Shown here piece by piece: positions 47,021 through 60,846 of a DNA stretch of 64,000 bases (position 1 is the stretch's first letter; every line of letters begins with the position of its first letter). This DNA comes from an uncultured Candidatus Binatia bacterium. Its GTDB lineage: Bacteria; Desulfobacterota; Binatia; UBA9968; CAXXLF01. The notes beneath the pieces are model-generated. The model was given only the letters and a program-made list of their open reading frames with translations, searched no databases and was not told the DNA's origin. Made by a program: the position numbers and the translations under genes. The stretch covers positions 1,952,001 to 2,016,000 of the forward strand of contig OZ244621.1 in assembly GCA_965218425.1 (NCBI GenBank), given 5' to 3'.

Positions 47021-47089
47021 TCGAGAACTCGGTTAATTGTTATTGTTAATCGTTTCGCCACGGGCCACTGAATGGGTGTTTTGGGGATC

Positions 47090-48151
47090 ATGAAAAAGGG
47101 GAAAGCTGACACTCCTGACTTAGTTCCTGCGCCTGTCCCAGAGTCTGAATGGGCTGCTTGGTCTGATGAGAAGCTCCTGGACATGAGGATATGCGATTTG
47201 CAACTAGAGATCCTGGGAACCGATATCGAGGAGCAGATTGAGCATCTCTACCAAGAGTTAGAGGACCGGGGTCTTGGCTTTCGCCCATTTTTCTGGCTCT
47301 CCGACGACTGGTTTACTCCAGACGGTGTCTCCGGAATCGCTATCCCTTTTTACCTGGCCCATCCGCGCCTGGCGCGCCTTGAGCTCAACCAGATGTTCGA
47401 GGTTGAGGGTGGGACTTCCGAGTGGTGCATGCGAATCCTTCGCCATGAGACCGGGCATGCCATAGAAAATGCCTACCTGTTACGGCGACGGCGACAGCGA
47501 CAGAAATTGTTCGGCAAATCCTCAAAGGCCTACCCTGAACACTACACGCCCAAGCCCTACAGCAAGAGATTCGTGCTCCACCTCGACTCCTGGTACGCCC
47601 AGAGCCACCCAGACGAGGACTTTGCGGAAACTTTCGCGGTCTGGCTTGACCCCAAATCCATGTGGCAAGAGCGCTATGCGGGCTGGCCCGTACTCAAAAA
47701 ACTCCAGTACATAGACCAGCTCATGCATGAGATTGGAAAGCGTGACCCGCTGGCGGAGCCACAAAGGCGTATGGAACCTGTCTCCCGATTGACCAAGACA
47801 CTGCGAGCACACTACTTGGAAAAACGCCGACACTACGGCGTCGAACACCCCGATTTCTACGATCGGGATCTCAGAAGGCTGTTCTCCGACGCCAAGGAAT
47901 TCCGGGGTAATATGACAGCGGCGTCTTTTTTGGGTCGGATTCGCAAGGAGGTACGCCGCAAGGTGGCAAGATGGACGGGTGAATACCAATACACCATTGA
48001 CCAGGTTCTACAGGATATGATCGACAGGTCCCGGGAACTCAACCTTAGACTGGCAAATAGCGAGGATCAAACAAAGTTAGACTTTACTGTTCTCCTTACG
48101 GTTCAGACGATGAACTATCTCCATAGTGGTCGTCACCGGCTGGCGTTATGA
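47090..48151 (+). CDS. Putative zinc-binding metallopeptidase (HExxH)
   Basis: LRHETGHA, YAQSHPDEDFAETFAVWL; the stop overlaps the next start (ATGA). Confidence 0.85.
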   Translation: MKKGKADTPDLVPAPVPESEWAAWSDEKLLDMRICDLQLEILGTDIEEQIEHLYQELEDRGLGFRPFFWLSDDWFTPDGVSGIAIPFYLAHPRLARLELNQMFEVEGGTSEWCMRILRHETGHAIENAYLLRRRRQRQKLFGKSSKAYPEHYTPKPYSKRFVLHLDSWYAQSHPDEDFAETFAVWLDPKSMWQERYAGWPVLKKLQYIDQLMHEIGKRDPLAEPQRRMEPVSRLTKTLRAHYLEKRRHYGVEHPDFYDRDLRRLFSDAKEFRGNMTAASFLGRIRKEVRRKVARWTGEYQYTIDQVLQDMIDRSRELNLRLANSEDQTKLDFTVLLTVQTMNYLHSGRHRLAL

Positions 48152-49170
48152 AAAAACTCAGAATCTTAGCGTTGATGCACGAGGATCTTGTTCCTCCCGA
48201 GGACATCTCCGGTATCGAGATCGAATCGGCGGAGTGGAAGACGGAGTATAGCGTCGTGACGACGTTACGCAAGATAGGGCACGAGGTCCTTCCCCTTGGG
48301 GTGCGAAGTGATCTGGAGGTAATTCACAAGACCATCGATGAGTGGAAGCCTCACATCGCCTTTAATCTACTCGAAGAGTTCGACGGTGTGGCAGTCTATG
48401 ATCAAAACGTGATCGGCTACCTCGAACTGTTGGGGATGCCCTACACCGGATGTAATCCGCGGGGTCTGATGCTGGCTCGTGACAAAAGCCTGTCCAAAAA
48501 GATTCTCGCCTATCATCGGATTCTTCACCCCGACTTTGCATTTTTCCCCATGGGACGCGCCGTGAGAAGGCACAAGCGTCTGGGGTTTCCGTTGATCGTC
48601 AAATCCGTCTCCCAGGAAGCCTCCCTGGGGATTTCCCAAGCCTCTATTGTGGATGACGATGACAAACTCCGAGAGCGCGTGTCCTTCGTTCATAAGAACG
48701 TTGGAACCGATGCCATTGCCGAAAGGTATATCGAAGGGCGCGAGCTATACGTAGGAGTCCTGGGCAACATGAGACTGCAAGTATTTCCCGTCTGGGAGTT
48801 GTTTTTAGACGGCTTGCCCGACGAGGTACAGCGCATCGCCACTGCAAGGGTGAAATGGAACCCAAACTATCAGAAAAAATACGGTATCACATCCGGGCCG
48901 GCGGAAGGGTTACCCAATGGGGTGAAGGAAAGGATTCAATATCTAGCCAAACGGATATACCGCGCCCTAAATCTAAGCGGATACGCCCGCGTCGATCTCA
49001 GGCTTGACACTGAAGGGAGGGTCTATGTCTTGGAAGCCAACCCTAACCCTGAAGTGGCTGAGCAGGAAGATTTCGCCGAATCCGCCCGTGAGGCTGGGAC
49101 CCTCTACAATGACCTGCTGCAGAAGATTCTCAATCTCGGTTCCCATTGGCGACCCGACCGGTTGGGATAG
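48148..49170 (+). CDS. ATP-grasp ligase, D-Ala-D-Ala ligase-like
   Basis: FNLLE, PYTG, DKSLSK, FPLIVK...EASLGIS, ERYIEGRE, YARVDLR, LEANPNP. Confidence 0.88.
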   Translation: MKKLRILALMHEDLVPPEDISGIEIESAEWKTEYSVVTTLRKIGHEVLPLGVRSDLEVIHKTIDEWKPHIAFNLLEEFDGVAVYDQNVIGYLELLGMPYTGCNPRGLMLARDKSLSKKILAYHRILHPDFAFFPMGRAVRRHKRLGFPLIVKSVSQEASLGISQASIVDDDDKLRERVSFVHKNVGTDAIAERYIEGRELYVGVLGNMRLQVFPVWELFLDGLPDEVQRIATARVKWNPNYQKKYGITSGPAEGLPNGVKERIQYLAKRIYRALNLSGYARVDLRLDTEGRVYVLEANPNPEVAEQEDFAESAREAGTLYNDLLQKILNLGSHWRPDRLG

Positions 49171-49265: not shown

Positions 49266-50402
49266 ATGCTCGTTAAAATGGCCAAAGGCGCCACCCCGGA
49301 ACAGATCACTGCAGTTGAGGAGAAACTGCACGGTTGGGGGTATAAAACCGGCAAGATGGCGGGCGAGGAGATCACCCTCATCGGGGCCTATGGGGACATA
49401 ACCCGCCTGCCGCAGGGTGAAATCCAGGAAATGGGTGGGGTCGAAAGCCTCATCCCCATCTCTAGGGCCTATAAACGAGCCTCTCAGAAAGGCTCTCCAG
49501 ACAGCCTTATACACAATACCGTAAACATTGGGAAAATTGAGGTTGGGGGCGACAAATTGACCGTTGTGGCAGGTCCCTGTTCTGTGGAAAGCGAGCCCCA
49601 GATCATGGAGGCCGCCAAATTTGTCAAAGAGTCCGGGGCCACGGCACTGCGCGGAGGAGTGGTTAAGTACCGCTCCAGTCCCTACAGCGGCTGGGAGGGT
49701 ATCGGCTCCAACTCGGAAGAGGCTCTGCGTAACGGGCTCAAACTCATTGTCAAAGCCGGTAAGGAATTTGACTTACCCACCGTGGTGGAGGTGCTCGATC
49801 CCAACGATGTCACCGTCTATGAAGACATGGGGATCGATTGTATCCAGGTGGGCGAGCCAAACTCAAAAAACCAAGCCCTGTTGAACCGTTTGCGCGATAC
49901 ACCACTGCCGGTCATCCATAAACGCGGCAACTCACTGGACATTGAAGCTTATCTGTTATGGGTGGAGCGCGTGATGGCCAATGGAAAAGAGAACGTCATC
50001 CTGTGCGAACGGGGCATCATGAGCGCCAACAAATATACCCGCAACACCTTGGACCTGGGCGCCATTGCCGCCCTGCACTATCAACTCTCGTGCCTGCCAG
50101 TTGGAGTGGACGCTTCTCATGGTACCGGGATCCGTGACCTCGTTCACAGTATGACTCTGGCCGGCATCATGGCCGGTGCCTCACTGGTCTTAATCGAGGC
50201 TCATCCCAACCCGCTCATCGCAAAATCGGACGGATTTCAAGGACTGTTTCCCGAGCAACTCATTCGGTTGGTGGCTGCCTGTTATCAGGTTTGGGACCTA
50301 CGCAAGCGCCTCGACTGTCTCTACATCCCAACCACAAACTTGGAACGCGACTACGACGCTCGGTCCACTACGGACAAGAAACGTTTCTTCGGCGCCTCTT
50401 AA
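49266..50402 (+). CDS. DAHP-synthase (type I-beta)-like aldolase with N-terminal regulatory domain and divergent active site
   Basis: AGPCSVES, LRGGVVKYRSSPY, HKRG, LCERG, RNTLDL, DASHG, IEAHPNP, SDG; RBS GGAGG before ATG 49266. Confidence 0.85.
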   Translation: MLVKMAKGATPEQITAVEEKLHGWGYKTGKMAGEEITLIGAYGDITRLPQGEIQEMGGVESLIPISRAYKRASQKGSPDSLIHNTVNIGKIEVGGDKLTVVAGPCSVESEPQIMEAAKFVKESGATALRGGVVKYRSSPYSGWEGIGSNSEEALRNGLKLIVKAGKEFDLPTVVEVLDPNDVTVYEDMGIDCIQVGEPNSKNQALLNRLRDTPLPVIHKRGNSLDIEAYLLWVERVMANGKENVILCERGIMSANKYTRNTLDLGAIAALHYQLSCLPVGVDASHGTGIRDLVHSMTLAGIMAGASLVLIEAHPNPLIAKSDGFQGLFPEQLIRLVAACYQVWDLRKRLDCLYIPTTNLERDYDARSTTDKKRFFGAS

Positions 50403-50520
50403 GAGTTGTGAGAGTCCTTTATTCCTCCCACGACCCAACAACCACTAAATCATGTCAGAAATAGAGACAGGCAAACACAAAGACAGCTAGAGCCCGAGTT
50501 CAGGCCAAGACGGATTGTCC

Positions 50521-51255
50521 ATGAAGGTCCACTTTTTAGGGTGTGGTGACGCCTTCGGTAGCGGAGGAAGAAATCACAGCGCTTATCTGGTGGAGGCCTC
50601 AGACCGTCTCTTTTTACTGGATTGCGGTCCCACTACCCTTCTATCCATGAAGAGGGCGGGATTTGATCCACAACGGCTTGACGCTATCATCCTGAGCCAT
50701 CTCCACGGGGACCACTTCGGCGGACTGCCTTTTTTTTTCCTGGAGTACCTCTACGGGACCCCACCCTCCAAGTCCTTGCCCATCATGGGTCCCGCCACCA
50801 CCGAGGAGCGCGTTCGCACATTGACCCATTGCATGTATCCGGGCATTTCAGAGCGCAATCAATCTCTTCCAACGCGGTTTCATATCCTCGAGCCGGGAAA
50901 ACAGGAATCCATCGAAGGCATCGACATCCTTCCCTTCCGTGTGCCGCACCAGGTCCAGGAGATTTCCCTGGGGCTCAAGATAGGTTATCAAGGAAAACAA
51001 ATTCTCTATTCAGGAGACTCGGCGTGGACGGATCAGTTCATCACCCATTCTAAGGGGGTAGACCTCTTTATCTGTGAGTGTTCTTTTTTTGCACGGGATT
51101 CCGAAGCTCATCTGAGCTACAGGAAGATTCAAGAGAATCTCCCTCAGCTAAAGTGTAAAAACCTGGTGCTCACCCACATGGACGAAGAAACGTTAAGTCA
51201 GAGACTAGACTTGTCCGTGAAGTCAGCCGAAGACGGGATGGTGGTTGAAATTTAA
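50521..51255 (+). CDS. MBL-fold metallo-hydrolase (RNase Z/AtsA-like)
   Basis: FLGCGDAFGSGGR, LDCG, SHLHGDH, YSGDS, LTHM. Confidence 0.9.
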   Translation: MKVHFLGCGDAFGSGGRNHSAYLVEASDRLFLLDCGPTTLLSMKRAGFDPQRLDAIILSHLHGDHFGGLPFFFLEYLYGTPPSKSLPIMGPATTEERVRTLTHCMYPGISERNQSLPTRFHILEPGKQESIEGIDILPFRVPHQVQEISLGLKIGYQGKQILYSGDSAWTDQFITHSKGVDLFICECSFFARDSEAHLSYRKIQENLPQLKCKNLVLTHMDEETLSQRLDLSVKSAEDGMVVEI

Positions 51256-51288
51256 TGCGAATCCTAGCATAAATCGGAGGGACGCCCC

Positions 51289-52176
51289 ATGGAAGTGATC
51301 AAAGGCCAGTTCAAAGAAACCAAAGGCATTCCACCCAGTGGTCTGTGCGTGGGGGTTCATCGTGCCGGGGCCATCCATATGAAAATGGTCGAGAAATATG
51401 GAGACGGACTATCAGTCTGGTCGCTCAGACCCGACCTGGATTTCGTGGCCTTCAAAAAGGAAGGCCTTGGGGAAAAAGGCATCCGCGCTACGAACGATAT
51501 GGAATCCATCACGGATGAAAAGCTCATCTATGGAGTCCGGGGGGCCCCACCGGAAATCCGGCAGAAGGCCCGGGATCAGGGGCTTGAGCTGCTGGCGGAC
51601 GCCACCTGCCCTTTCGTGCTTGAGCAGGAAAAAGCCGAGGTGGAGATGCTGCAGCAGGGGTTCAACCTGGTGGTATTGAGCAGCGCTACCCATCACGGTA
51701 TCCCACGCTTGTTGGGTATCGCAAAGGAAGCGGGACGCGAGGTTTTTATCGTGGAGAAAGAAGAGGACGTGGACAAGATACGCCTTACCCGCTTCGAGCC
51801 CGTCGGGGTCATCGTTCAAACCACTTTCTGGATGGAATCTTACAAAAAGATCATGGCTCTAATCCTGGAGCGGTTCTCCAATGTTCGCGTCCGAAACACC
51901 GCGTGCATCGATTCTTTCCAGCGGCTCCCCGAGGTGGAAAAACTGGCCAAACAGGTGGAGGCGGTCGTCATCGTGGGATGGACCGAGGGGATGACCACAC
52001 GCATGTTAGAGGTGGCTAAAGCTTCCAACCCGTGCGTCTACAAGCTTGAAAAGGTGGAAGAGCTTGAAACCATCTGGTTTCGGGGCAAGGAAAAAGTCGG
52101 TGTCATCGGGGCCAACGAAACCCCCGACTGGATGGTGGATGAGGTCATCGAGCGGATCAAATCCATGGCGGCATAG
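51289..52176 (+). CDS. IspH/LytB-like iron-sulfur protein (divergent)
   Basis: GLCVGV.RA, DATCPFV, VQTT, NTAC, KVGVIGA.ETPDW...EV. The three cluster Cys are kept; the substrate-binding motifs are altered. Confidence 0.8.
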   Translation: MEVIKGQFKETKGIPPSGLCVGVHRAGAIHMKMVEKYGDGLSVWSLRPDLDFVAFKKEGLGEKGIRATNDMESITDEKLIYGVRGAPPEIRQKARDQGLELLADATCPFVLEQEKAEVEMLQQGFNLVVLSSATHHGIPRLLGIAKEAGREVFIVEKEEDVDKIRLTRFEPVGVIVQTTFWMESYKKIMALILERFSNVRVRNTACIDSFQRLPEVEKLAKQVEAVVIVGWTEGMTTRMLEVAKASNPCVYKLEKVEELETIWFRGKEKVGVIGANETPDWMVDEVIERIKSMAA

Positions 52177-52188
52177 GCAACACGTCAG

Positions 52189-52476
52189 ATGCCAAAGATT
52201 ACCTTCATGCCTTCCGGACAGAGCTTTGACGTGGATGAAGGCACCACAATATTAGCGGCGGCCATCCATAATGGCCTCCACCTCCCCCATGATTGCACCG
52301 AGGCCATCTGCGGAACCGATCGGGTGAAGGTCTTGTCCGGTCACAAAAACCTGAGCGAGAGGGGCGACAACGAGGAATTGACCTTGAGCATGTTAAATTC
52401 CGGCGCTGATGATCGTCTGGGCTGCGTCGCGCAGGTCCTTGGGGAAGTGGTGGTAGAAATCCCTTCTCCGTCTTAG
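52189..52476 (+). CDS. 2Fe-2S ferredoxin-like protein with the third Cys replaced by Asp
   Basis: MPKITF.PSG, TILAAA, HDCTEAICGTDRV, RLGC. Confidence 0.85.
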   Translation: MPKITFMPSGQSFDVDEGTTILAAAIHNGLHLPHDCTEAICGTDRVKVLSGHKNLSERGDNEELTLSMLNSGADDRLGCVAQVLGEVVVEIPSPS

Positions 52477-52572: not shown

Positions 52573-53390
52573 TCAACCGGAATTTTCCATAAAGCTTATG
52601 ATCTCTCTCGCTGCGTTGACCGCACCGTCGATTGGGTCCTGTAGCCGTTTGAGCCGCTGCATATTTTCCCGATAACTCTTGTCAGTCGTGATGAGCTCAA
52701 TTGCAGCGGCAAGTCTGCGACTGCTCAAGGTCTTCGGGTGCAATGCCTAGTATCTCCGGAGCATCCATTACGAGTGTCAGGTCACCGGCCATCAGGTCGA
52801 GGGCGCTCTTGAACTCCGATGGTTTTAGCTCTGAGGCAAGCTGATTAAACGGCCTGATCCACAGCCGTAGCCGAGGCATGATCCAGTTGACAAACCAGTT
52901 CATAGGCAGGTAGTGAAGCCAACCGAATTAAGGCGGGTACAAATACGCCATCTTTCGATCGAAGAAGGGGGCGGTGAATGGGGTCAGGCCGCTGCGCCAC
53001 AATGGGGATACCAACAAGCCGGACTGACAAATAAGACGGGAGATTCCATCCAATGATCACTACATCGGCTTTCGCATCACGGAGCATTCCCGCTTCACAT
53101 GGGACATACTCCTTTAGCTCTTCGTAGGTGAGGAAACTATCGCGGAACGGGTTGCCGACCTCTCCCCCGTTGAATGCCATGTACTGCTTGGCCCGTTCCC
53201 GTGACATCATGGGTGGGACAGGGAGCACCTCGAAACCTGCGTCTTGAGCTACCCACTCGTATGAACCGCCATGGCTGAAAAACGGAATGTCGTGTCCCAT
53301 CTCACGGAGGGCTTTGCCAGGTTCTACAAGGCGTGACACCTCTGAAAGGTAATAGAAATGAGAAAGCAGACGATGTTCATGGGTGATATA
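52573..53390 (-). pseudogene. Decayed GT-B glycosyltransferase (UGT/MGT-like)
   Basis: N-terminal LSEVSRLVE.GKALREMGHD..FFSHGG.Y; frameshift near 52990. The C-terminal piece YRENMQRLKRLQDPIDGAVNAAREI is in another frame, and the sugar-binding domain is deleted. Confidence 0.65.
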
Positions 53391-59695: not shown

Positions 59696-59986
59696 ATGGG
59701 CAAGCGAAGGCGTTTCACCCAAGAGTTTAAGTTGGAAGCTGTTCGACTGCTGGAGGCGGGCGCTCGGCCAGCAGCGGAGATTGCACGGGAACTGGGAGTA
59801 CCTCGCAATCGACTGTACAAGTGGCAGGAGCAAGTGACGAGGAAAGGGGCGGCTGCGTTTCCCGGCACAGGTCGAGGTAGAGACAACGATGAGGTAGCAC
59901 GGTTAAGGCGAGAGCTGGAGCGGGTAACGCAACAACGAGATATATTAAAAAAGGCCGCAGCGTACTTTGCCAAGGAGCTCAAGTAA
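59696..59986 (+). CDS. IS3 transposase OrfA
   Basis: RRFTQEFKLEAVRL, IARELGV...LYKW, ILKKAAAYFAKE; AAAAAAG -1 frameshift motif at 59947-59953. Confidence 0.92.
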   Translation: MGKRRRFTQEFKLEAVRLLEAGARPAAEIARELGVPRNRLYKWQEQVTRKGAAAFPGTGRGRDNDEVARLRRELERVTQQRDILKKAAAYFAKELK

Positions 59987-60027
59987 AGTACGCGTTTATA
60001 CGAGCTCACAGGACAGAGTTTAGGGTA

Positions 60028-60846
60028 GTGAGGATGTGCGAGGTATTAGAGGTCAGTCGTAGTGGGTACTACGACTGGAGCGGTCGAGGGGAGTCTCGGC
60101 GTAGAGCACAGGATAAGGTTGTGATCAAAGAGATCCGCAAGGTGCACGAGAGCTACAAGGAAGCGTACGGGGCAGTCAAGACATGGCTGACGCTGAAGGA
60201 GGCGGGGGTGACATGTGGGAAGCATGGGGTGGCGAGGCTGAGGAGTTTAGTGGGGATAGAGACGCGTCGGGTGCAAAGGTTTCGATTGGCCTACAAGGCT
60301 CGTCACAGTGCGCCACCGGCACCGAACTTGTTGCGTCAACGCTTCGAAGCGTCAGGCCCCGACCAGGTATGGATGGCCGATATTACCTTCATTGGTACCC
60401 GATCTGGGTGGTTATACCTGGCGGTAGTGGTGGACCTTTACTCTCGGCTGGTGGTGGGATGGTCAATGAAGCAACGTCCCACACAGGAGTTGGTCAGTGA
60501 AGCTTTACTGATGGCTATCGAACAGCGCCAGCCTATGGCGGGGCTGATTCACCATAGCGACCAAGGAATCCAATACGCTAGCAATCACTACGTTGAGTTG
60601 CTCAAACGCCATGGGGTGGTGCGCAGCATGAGCCGCAAAGGGAATTGCTACGACAATGCAGTGGTCGAGAGTTTGTTCAGCTCACTAAAGAATGAACTTG
60701 TACACCATCAGGATTATAAGACGAGGCAGGACGCTAGGTCGGATATCTTCGACTACATTGAACTGTTTTATAACCGAAGAAGAAAGCATGAGTCGTTGGG
60801 ATACCACACCCCAATGGCATATGACTCGATCAAACGTGTGGCTTAA
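60028..60846 (+). CDS. IS3 transposase OrfB (DDE)
   Basis: VSRSGYY, WMADIT, HHSDQGIQY, SMSRKGNCYDNAVVES, YN..R.H.SLGY. Confidence 0.93.
   Translation: MRMCEVLEVSRSGYYDWSGRGESRRRAQDKVVIKEIRKVHESYKEAYGAVKTWLTLKEAGVTCGKHGVARLRSLVGIETRRVQRFRLAYKARHSAPPAPNLLRQRFEASGPDQVWMADITFIGTRSGWLYLAVVVDLYSRLVVGWSMKQRPTQELVSEALLMAIEQRQPMAGLIHHSDQGIQYASNHYVELLKRHGVVRSMSRKGNCYDNAVVESLFSSLKNELVHHQDYKTRQDARSDIFDYIELFYNRRRKHESLGYHTPMAYDSIKRVA

Follow-up and report, generated by a model that had tools for sequence, protein, structure and literature searches.

An IspH-like gene in an unexpected cluster

Four neighboring genes in the genome of an uncultured Candidatus Binatia bacterium encode proteins resembling a DAHP synthase (DAHPS), an MBL-fold hydrolase, IspH, and a ferredoxin, raising the question of whether they act together. 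In the window, which is the whole 64,000-nucleotide stretch of DNA that was analyzed, the genes lie on the + strand with gaps of 118, 33, and 12 bp, as the initial annotation had described: a DAHPS-like ORF at positions 49266-50402 (378 aa; PF00793 and PF18152), an MBL-fold ORF at 50521-51255 (244 aa; Lactamase_B_2), an IspH-like ORF at 51289-52176 (295 aa; PF02401 LYTB), and a ferredoxin ORF at 52189-52476 (95 aa; Fer2). The left border of this 'operon' is arbitrary, because an ATP-grasp gene in the same orientation (48148-49170, + strand) lies only 95 bp 5′ of the DAHPS-like gene, which is less than the 118 bp internal gap. A scan for promoter and terminator signals gave chance level only. 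We consider it quite likely that the locus is three things joined by family-level synteny: a redox pair, a DAHPS-like gene, and a core MBL gene.

The IspH-like protein and its ferredoxin form a conserved unit

The conserved unit at this locus consists of the IspH-like protein and a ferredoxin with three Cys ligands and one Asp ligand (Cys3Asp). Its distribution was followed in 151 Binatia-class genomes and in metagenome loci, for which the best 80 of 392 IspH-like loci were used; because these are the best matches and all at least 74% identical, the 80 loci are related rather than independent. The ferredoxin gene is directly 3′ of the IspH-like gene in 76 of the 80, and in 71 of the 73 that have at least 400 bp of downstream sequence. 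Among the Binatia-class genomes, an orthologue of the ferredoxin occurs in 11 of the 12 with the IspH-like gene versus none of the remaining 139. These counts support the ferredoxin as a dedicated partner of the IspH-like protein. In family f3 the orthologue is found in 8/9 genomes even though the two genes stand apart, and the pair is also adjacent in four loci titled Alphaproteobacteria, Pseudomonadota, or Gammaproteobacteria (L015-L018; 54-56% identity). The ESM Atlas returned LytB and Fer2 clusters only, and a plasmid collection gave 88 records, all below 60% identity, the 8 matches listed being at 26-30%.

Other neighboring gene families define no pathway for the pair, and several are background. 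UbiD was considered as a defining partner and rejected: its gene is found in 9 of 96 loci, compared with 84 for the ferredoxin, and the genome studied here (G000) has 68 UbiD-like loci, as well as 61 bicupin-like and 25 OCD-like loci. As clues to the substrate, OCD/mu-crystallin, beta-etherase-like GST, YfcG-like GST, AhpD-like, and bicupin genes, along with a reductive-dehalogenase-like Fer4 protein, follow sub-clades rather than being universal and give weak hints.

The substrate pocket of the IspH-like protein is rebuilt

The IspH-like protein matches PF02401 (E = 2e-46) yet is only 25-27% identical to IspH/LytB (TIGR00216, PF02401; PDB 3DNF, 3KE8) and scores under every NCBIfam IspH cut-off, with 135.6 for TIGR00216 versus 187.85 required. 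Its predicted structure (AF2 pLDDT 86.9) has the three-lobed IspH fold, with a Foldseek TM of ~0.8 to E. coli IspH. Alignment to Aquifex aeolicus (3DNF) and E. coli IspH shows that the cluster cysteines C20, C107, and C206 are kept, as are H135 (H124 in IspH) and the Q166-T167-T168 motif. A further similarity is the partner, a small electron carrier, as described for IspH in PMC8837944.

PMC8837944 also gives the diphosphate pocket of IspH as H41, H74, H124, S225, S269, T168, N227, and Q166, and E126 as the proton donor for dehydroxylation, E126 mutants being nearly inactive. In the IspH-like protein three of these eight pocket residues are kept (H124, T168, and Q166) and five are lost. H41, H74, E126, S225, N227, and S269 are replaced by D51, R84, G137, E233, M235, and E277 in 118-120 of 120 homologues; the alignment to E. 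coli IspH is shifted at H41, and this column is taken from the one to 3DNF. The catalytic E126 position is Gly in 120/120, and H-H-G stands where IspH has H-P-E. New pocket residues invariant in all 120 are H24, W44, R47, R84, H136, R140, W181, W231, E233, N276, and E277. The proposal of altered substrate motifs with retained metal ligands therefore holds for this protein, and because the changes are conserved across homologues they do not reflect decay.

A quick tree of 50 rows puts the ten remodelled sequences together on one side of a single branch (SH-aLRT 99). All 12 IspH-like genomes in the Binatia-class sample keep a second, canonical-scoring ispH, so that, unlike IspH itself, the IspH-like protein always accompanies a canonical copy and has its own linked ferredoxin; this supports its being a remodelled paralog. 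Several database copies carry the plain IspH label, and annotations are therefore misleading. A distant relative, P0138, is without the first cysteine. Neither the term 'IspH-like' nor, by title or abstract, the clade itself was matched in the open-access literature searched, and the main text of an article on Binatota genomes (PMC8262859), whose supplements might list them, has no occurrence of IspH, DAHP, or shikimate.

An aspartate replaces the third cysteine of the ferredoxin

The ferredoxin matches Fer2 (PF00111; E = 6e-12, 45.8 bits versus a gathering threshold of 21) and shares fold family, length, C-X4-C, and the distal Cys with plant/ISC-type [2Fe-2S] ferredoxins (PF00111; PDB 9I2A, 1I7H). 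In contrast to those proteins, its ligand pattern is C-X4-C-X2-D...C, made up of C36, C41, D44 as the third ligand, and C79, rather than the four-cysteine motif C-X4/5-C-X2-C...C. The Asp aligns opposite a Cys of the PDB ferredoxins and is present in 84/84 linked homologues, confirming the ligand swap that had been noticed initially. Within the class sample, the Cys3Asp form is confined to IspH-like genomes. An Asp ligand raises the potential of a [2Fe-2S] cluster. Nothing on Asp-ligated [2Fe-2S] ferredoxins, including the effect on potential, was found in the open-access literature searched.

A candidate redox reaction for the pair

The IspH-like protein is probably a redox enzyme that is coupled to the ferredoxin and acts on something other than a diphosphate, and the pair probably runs an undescribed redox reaction. 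That this is some ferredoxin-coupled reaction on a substrate other than HMBPP is likely. In such a reaction, the IspH-like protein would bind a [4Fe-4S] cluster in which one iron is open, and the ferredoxin would exchange single electrons with it, in one direction or the other. The substrate would bind the open iron and be held by the now-acidic pocket, formed by D51, E233, and E277 with R84, H135, and H136. Because the pocket is now acidic, the substrate would be no diphosphate and more likely neutral or basic. The proton would come from H135/H136 or from one of the new glutamates. As the foremost single candidate, we tentatively propose a two-electron, two-proton reaction that removes an OH in allylic or benzylic position, or a comparable leaving group, from a small organic molecule as part of catabolism or detoxification. 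Stated more broadly, there is a reasonable chance, somewhat short of even, that the IspH fold has been reused outside isoprenoid synthesis, with the H-H-G clade and its Asp-ligated ferredoxin acting on a non-phosphorylated substrate, in which they would break or form a C-O, C-N, or C-halogen bond. A second metal might then be bound by H135, H136, D51, E233, and E277, in the place once taken by the diphosphate.

A potential raised by the Asp ligand would be hard to reconcile with a reductase. PMC8837944 describes IspH as inactive with mediators above -250 mV. The pair could instead work oxidatively, with the open iron as the site of dehydrogenation or of water-derived hydroxylation and the ferredoxin as a higher-potential acceptor. 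The Asp found in every linked ferredoxin and the absence of E126, the dehydroxylation proton donor, both favor this alternative, but the new acids and histidines could stand in for E126. We know of no oxidative IspH-fold enzyme, and we regard the oxidative reading as unlikely. It is quite unlikely that the pair is non-catalytic or non-redox. It would then be an Fe-S protein in a sensor or carrier role, or an aconitase-like hydratase, and the ferredoxin would only keep the cluster reduced or repaired. Loss of the catalytic E126, the recurrence of AhpD/CMD-, OsmC-, AhpC-, and GST-like redox-stress genes nearby, and the missing cysteine of P0138 would fit such a role, whereas a large number of the new residues in the pocket do not vary across 120/120 homologues, as expected for a specific small-molecule site.

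The four genes do not form a dedicated pathway

Genome profiles and synteny do not bear out a dedicated four-gene pathway. Of the 151 Binatia-class genomes, 12 carry the IspH-like gene, 48 the DAHPS-like gene, and 2 both, compared with 3.8 expected by chance; the IspH-like gene is missing from 46 of the 48 DAHPS-like carriers, and the DAHPS-like gene from 10 of the 12 IspH-like carriers. Within the 80 metagenome loci taken as the best of 392, just 3 have DAHPS and MBL genes 5′ of the IspH-like gene, and an MBL gene is there in 3 of the 61 whose upstream sequence spans 900 bp or more. These three loci always lie within a longer family-level block that includes peptidase and ATP-grasp genes, here Peptidase_Mx and ATP-grasp genes (47072..49170, + strand), which are block mates of the DAHPS-like and MBL genes and outside the IspH-like/ferredoxin module. 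Beyond one family the gene order is lost. A four-step pathway of PEP aldol condensation, phosphoester hydrolysis, and Fe-S reductive dehydroxylation is thus largely refuted by the profiles and very improbable. In its favor, L101, L102, and L108 preserve the gene order (with 82/70/83/72% identity in L108), and the L008 and L020 genomes also hold both DAHPS-like and IspH-like genes, in non-adjacent positions, so that the two genes share 4/16 IspH-like genomes. Further, a pocket that has lost the residues for binding diphosphate would be appropriate for a dephosphorylated substrate, and the DAHPS-like loop has KDO8PS-like traits. Against it, purU is inserted in L005, MBL is truncated in L006, and the block takes in unrelated upstream genes.

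The MBL gene (50521..51255, + strand) encodes an RNase Z-like MBL-fold phosphodiesterase family protein and is a core gene of the class, present in 140/151 Binatia-class genomes. The protein shares the HxHxDH metal motif and overall length with RNase Z-like phosphodiesterases (PF12706; PDB 1ZKP, 6KNS) but falls under all equivalog cut-offs and is near-universal in the class; no rewired motif was seen in it. In one genome (G098) it is an 88-aa remnant while the other three genes are whole. It adjoins the ferredoxin gene in 6/8 f3 genomes, and the MBL-IspH-like-ferredoxin arrangement therefore predates one family. The MBL gene is probably an old landing site of the pair, and its phosphodiesterase would be a bystander.

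The DAHPS-like protein may still supply DAHP

The DAHPS-like protein (49266..50402, + strand) belongs to a divergent type I-beta DAHP-synthase subfamily with an N-terminal FXD domain, KYRS and GEPN motifs, and a ~40-aa C-terminal helical extension. Thermotoga maritima DAHP synthase (PDB 1RZM; PF00793 and PF18152) is its best fold match and shares with it the domain layout, the four metal ligands (C105, H285, E311, and D322), and the R126, K131, R133, K207, and R237 equivalents. It differs in having KPRT for KYRS and GARN for GEPN, and in lacking the loop insertions and the C-terminal extension. The Cys/His/Glu/Asp metal ligands and the equivalents of R126, K131, K207, and R237, which we take to be PEP-binding in type I-beta DAHP synthase, are present in 120/120 homologues, and the motif changes are fixed in the same 120 except at P198 (114 P, 6 V). 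Retained metal ligands with altered substrate motifs are thus found here as well. The score against PRK08673 is 307 bits (cut-off 335). Nothing on the residue roles of GARN/KPRT was found in the open-access literature searched.

In other families the neighbors of the DAHPS-like gene are unrelated. Canonical copies had been expected elsewhere in the genome, which holds for ispH and fails for aroF: only a 40-aa scar of canonical aroF is left in G000, so the DAHPS-like gene is this genome's only DAHP synthase candidate, and in G098 and G151 canonical aroF is frameshifted. In G000, aroB and aroC are intact, and neither a class II DAHPS nor the archaeal DHQS route turned up in a search. We lean toward the DAHPS-like subfamily still condensing PEP with an aldose phosphate, which would supply DAHP here. 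A less probable but serious alternative is a non-DAHP product, such as an eight-carbon ulosonate phosphate made from a pentose phosphate, in a genome lacking the first shikimate step. KYRS, GEPNxK, and H218 are invariant and the aldose loop has a one-residue insertion, which speaks for this alternative, although KdsA also lacks the GARN arginine and otherwise canonical aroF sequences can carry KPRS. A further PF00793 match, a second DAHPS-family gene besides KdsA, is present in 42 of the 48 carriers (canonical type I-alpha in 5/5 checked), and these second copies fit a separate function equally well. Against a non-DAHP product, as read from match counts and best E-values, 6/48 carriers (G000 and five others) lack any other DAHPS match and a further 2 have only broken or fragmentary ones, versus 1/103 non-carriers, and aroB is kept in G004, G009, G012, and G113.

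Implications for the IspH fold

The DAHPS-like subfamily offers an independent way to ask which of the motif residues are essential to DAHP synthase. The Cys3Asp ferredoxin would be a natural case for Asp-ligand tuning of a [2Fe-2S] carrier, and together with the IspH-like protein it makes up a two-gene unit of ~1.2 kb that is expressible and testable. IspH is, to our knowledge, treated as a one-reaction family. If our reading is true, a clade in which the HMBPP pocket has been replaced and that has its own Cys3Asp ferredoxin would broaden the chemistry of the IspH fold.

The IspH-like protein has a remodelled pocket

Four co-oriented genes on the + strand encode a DAHPS-like protein (window 49266-50402; Pfam DAHP_synth_1 with an FXD domain), an RNase Z-like MBL-fold protein (50521-51255; Lactamase_B_2), an IspH-like protein (51289-52176; LYTB), and a ferredoxin (52189-52476; Fer2), separated by 118, 33, and 12 bp. 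None of the four reaches an NCBIfam cut-off. ORF coordinates, alignments, and residue counts in homologues confirm the initial annotation's description of this arrangement and its altered motifs. The source genome, G000, is a single 4.46 Mb contig that is 97% complete. The + strand gene run extends upstream, with 95 bp between the end of an ATP-grasp gene and the DAHPS-like start; this gene overlaps a Peptidase_Mx gene (47072-49170, +), and the pair is retained in five loci. Downstream, a convergent gene split in three (52573-53339, - strand; 164, 68, and 56 aa), which we take to be glycosyltransferase-like, is a probable pseudogene, and its longest piece has no Pfam match. Two ORFs at 59696-60846 (+) presumably resemble an IS3-type transposase pair.

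The IspH-like protein aligns along its length to Aquifex aeolicus and Escherichia coli IspH, and a Foldseek search with its AlphaFold2 model (pLDDT 86.9, from an input alignment of 14 sequences) returned IspH structures in all of the top 11 listed rows, with a TM score of ~0.8 against E. coli IspH. Passages of PMC8837944 give H41, H74, H124, S225, S269, T168, N227, and Q166 as the diphosphate pocket of IspH and describe E126 mutants as almost inactive. Alignment to IspH indicates that the three cysteines, H124, Q166, T167, and T168 are retained, with H41 replaced by D51, H74 by R84, S225 by E233, N227 by M235, S269 by E277, and E126 by G137. Among the best 120 of 438 homologues, each new residue occurs in 118-120 of 120, and H24, W44, R47, H136, R140, W181, W231, and N276 are invariant (120/120). 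At the level of sequence, the HMBPP pocket of canonical IspH has been lost and a new invariant pocket gained.

In a quick tree of 50 rows, the ten remodelled rows, which include representatives P0144 and P0126 (both with the motif), group together on one side of a single branch (SH-aLRT 99). Searching 50% representatives with a profile turned up a few distant proteins with H-H-G in place of the H-P-E of IspH; P0128, P0131, P0138, and P0144 are relatives of this type, and P0138 lacks the first cluster cysteine. In the non-subscription literature searched, the term 'IspH-like' was not found, and title- and abstract-level searches returned nothing on the remodelled clade. The main-text portions of PMC8262859 covered do not mention IspH, DAHP, or shikimate.

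A Cys3Asp ferredoxin is the conserved partner

The ligand swap proposed for the ferredoxin is borne out: it has C36, C41, and C79, and structure-sequence comparison places D44 where solved ferredoxins have cysteine, with aspartate in all 84 linked homologues. Passages of PMC8928951 give four-cysteine motifs as canonical without using the word 'aspartate', and the part of its motif table covered also contains three-cysteine spacings. One genome, G153, carries two copies of the Cys3Asp ferredoxin ~2.5 kb apart (L189 and L195).

Among 151 genomes of the class (tallies include the unpublished G080, on which no specific claim rests), with presence set at matches of at least 73% for the IspH-like gene and at least 68% for the ferredoxin orthologue, the IspH-like gene occurs in 12 (families f1, 2/2; f3, 9/9; f2, 1/10), all with a second ispH match. 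The ferredoxin orthologue occurs in 11 of these 12 genomes versus 0 of the 139 others, six of which have only weak matches (38-43%). Of 392 metagenome loci we took the best 80: the ferredoxin directly follows the IspH-like gene in 76 of these, and in 71 of the 73 where 400 bp or more of downstream sequence is available. The two genes also adjoin each other at 8 of 16 genome loci, including four proteobacterial ones (54-56% identity), and the ferredoxin is present somewhere in 14 of the 16 genomes; these genome and locus sets partly overlap and include kin. The conserved partner of the IspH-like protein is the ferredoxin, not UbiD, MBL, or DAHPS, and the two-gene module is real and uncharacterised.

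A conserved four-gene pathway is not supported

The proposal of a dedicated four-gene pathway is not supported. The DAHPS-like and IspH-like genes share 2 of 151 genomes, with 3.8 expected; the DAHPS-like gene occurs in 48 (47 whole, one partial; families f1, f6, f9, f11, and f12), with differing neighbours outside f1 (30 loci viewed), and the MBL gene in 140. Recurrence of gene order holds for the IspH-like and ferredoxin genes but not for DAHPS and MBL, which lie upstream at only 3 of the 80 metagenome loci above (3 of 45 when 2.2 kb of upstream sequence is present), all three also with the peptidase and ATP-grasp genes. At locus L005 purU is inserted, and at L006 MBL is truncated. Against this rejection, the four-gene order does persist at L101, L102, and L108, MBL adjoins the ferredoxin in six of eight f3 genomes, and in two further genomes both remodelled enzymes occur, though at separate places. 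Our reading is that the IspH-like/ferredoxin pair inserted next to a core MBL gene in an f1/f3 ancestor.

The DAHPS-like protein and loss of aroF

Compared with Thermotoga maritima DAHPS, the DAHPS-like protein retains all four metal ligands together with R126, K131, R133, K207, and R237, but has KYRS for KPRT, GEPN for GARN, and an extra C-terminal helical extension. Our literature searches found no paper on the roles of these residues. KdsA likewise has no GARN arginine, so that this loss need not stop PEP chemistry.

The initial annotation asked whether canonical copies exist elsewhere. G000 keeps a canonical ispH with canonical motifs (C1:2737424-2738377), but its type I-beta aroF is reduced to a 40-codon remnant (C1:3145978-3146097; L099 2979-3098) between genes that we take to be hisC and tyrA. 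Its only PF00793 members are the DAHPS-like gene and kdsA, no class II DAHPS or PF01959 member was found in it, and aroB and aroC are intact. In two relatives canonical aroF is frameshifted at positions that differ between them, once in G151 (C3:131345-132315) and twice in G098 (C1:886928-887733), possibly through assembly error, especially in G151; the genes flanking the degraded aroF are whole in all three genomes. By match counts and best E-values among the matches listed, 6 of 48 DAHPS-like carriers lack any other DAHPS match and a further two have only broken or fragmentary ones, versus 1 of 103 non-carriers; but 42 of the 48 carriers do have another match, which is type I-alpha in all five that were checked. 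On balance, the DAHPS-like protein more likely than not makes DAHP.

A second divergent type I-beta clade in the class (L085-L090 and L093), which matches the DAHPS-like protein at ~30%, retains KPRT but reads GTRN and is altered in the first metal motif; at L088 its gene directly follows canonical ispH.

Possible function of the module

The fold, the cysteines, the loss of the HMBPP pocket, the new invariant pocket, and the dedicated ferredoxin are established. The IspH-like protein would bind a [4Fe-4S] cluster in which one iron is left open and exchange electrons with the ferredoxin one at a time, and a non-diphosphate substrate would bind in the acidic, histidine-lined pocket. Extrapolating from IspH, our preferred reaction would be reductive loss of an activated hydroxyl or similar group; less probable alternatives are the oxidative direction and a sensor or hydratase role.

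Out of 96 loci, neighbours that occur in sub-clades include OCD/mu-crystallin at 21, each of two GST types at 18, a reductive-dehalogenase-like protein at 17, AhpD-like proteins at 16, bicupins at 10, and UbiD at 9. In one sub-clade, the IspH-like gene, the ferredoxin, and in most cases OCD are followed by the reductive-dehalogenase-like Fer4 protein, which scores 113.6 bits against TIGR02486, below cut-off (L167 7905-8810 and 16 other loci). Split OsmC-like (NF041052) and AhpD-like gene pairs lie near the module at L125 (2210-2860), L167, L149, and L154, and the OsmC split may reflect a selenocysteine TGA. The neighbours hint at aromatic or xenobiotic catabolism, weakly, because G000 holds 68 UbiD-, 61 bicupin-, and 25 OCD-like loci; amidohydrolase-like (~84) and XDH-like (35) loci are also expanded across this genome. 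What is new is the identification of the ferredoxin as the conserved partner of a remodelled IspH-like protein.
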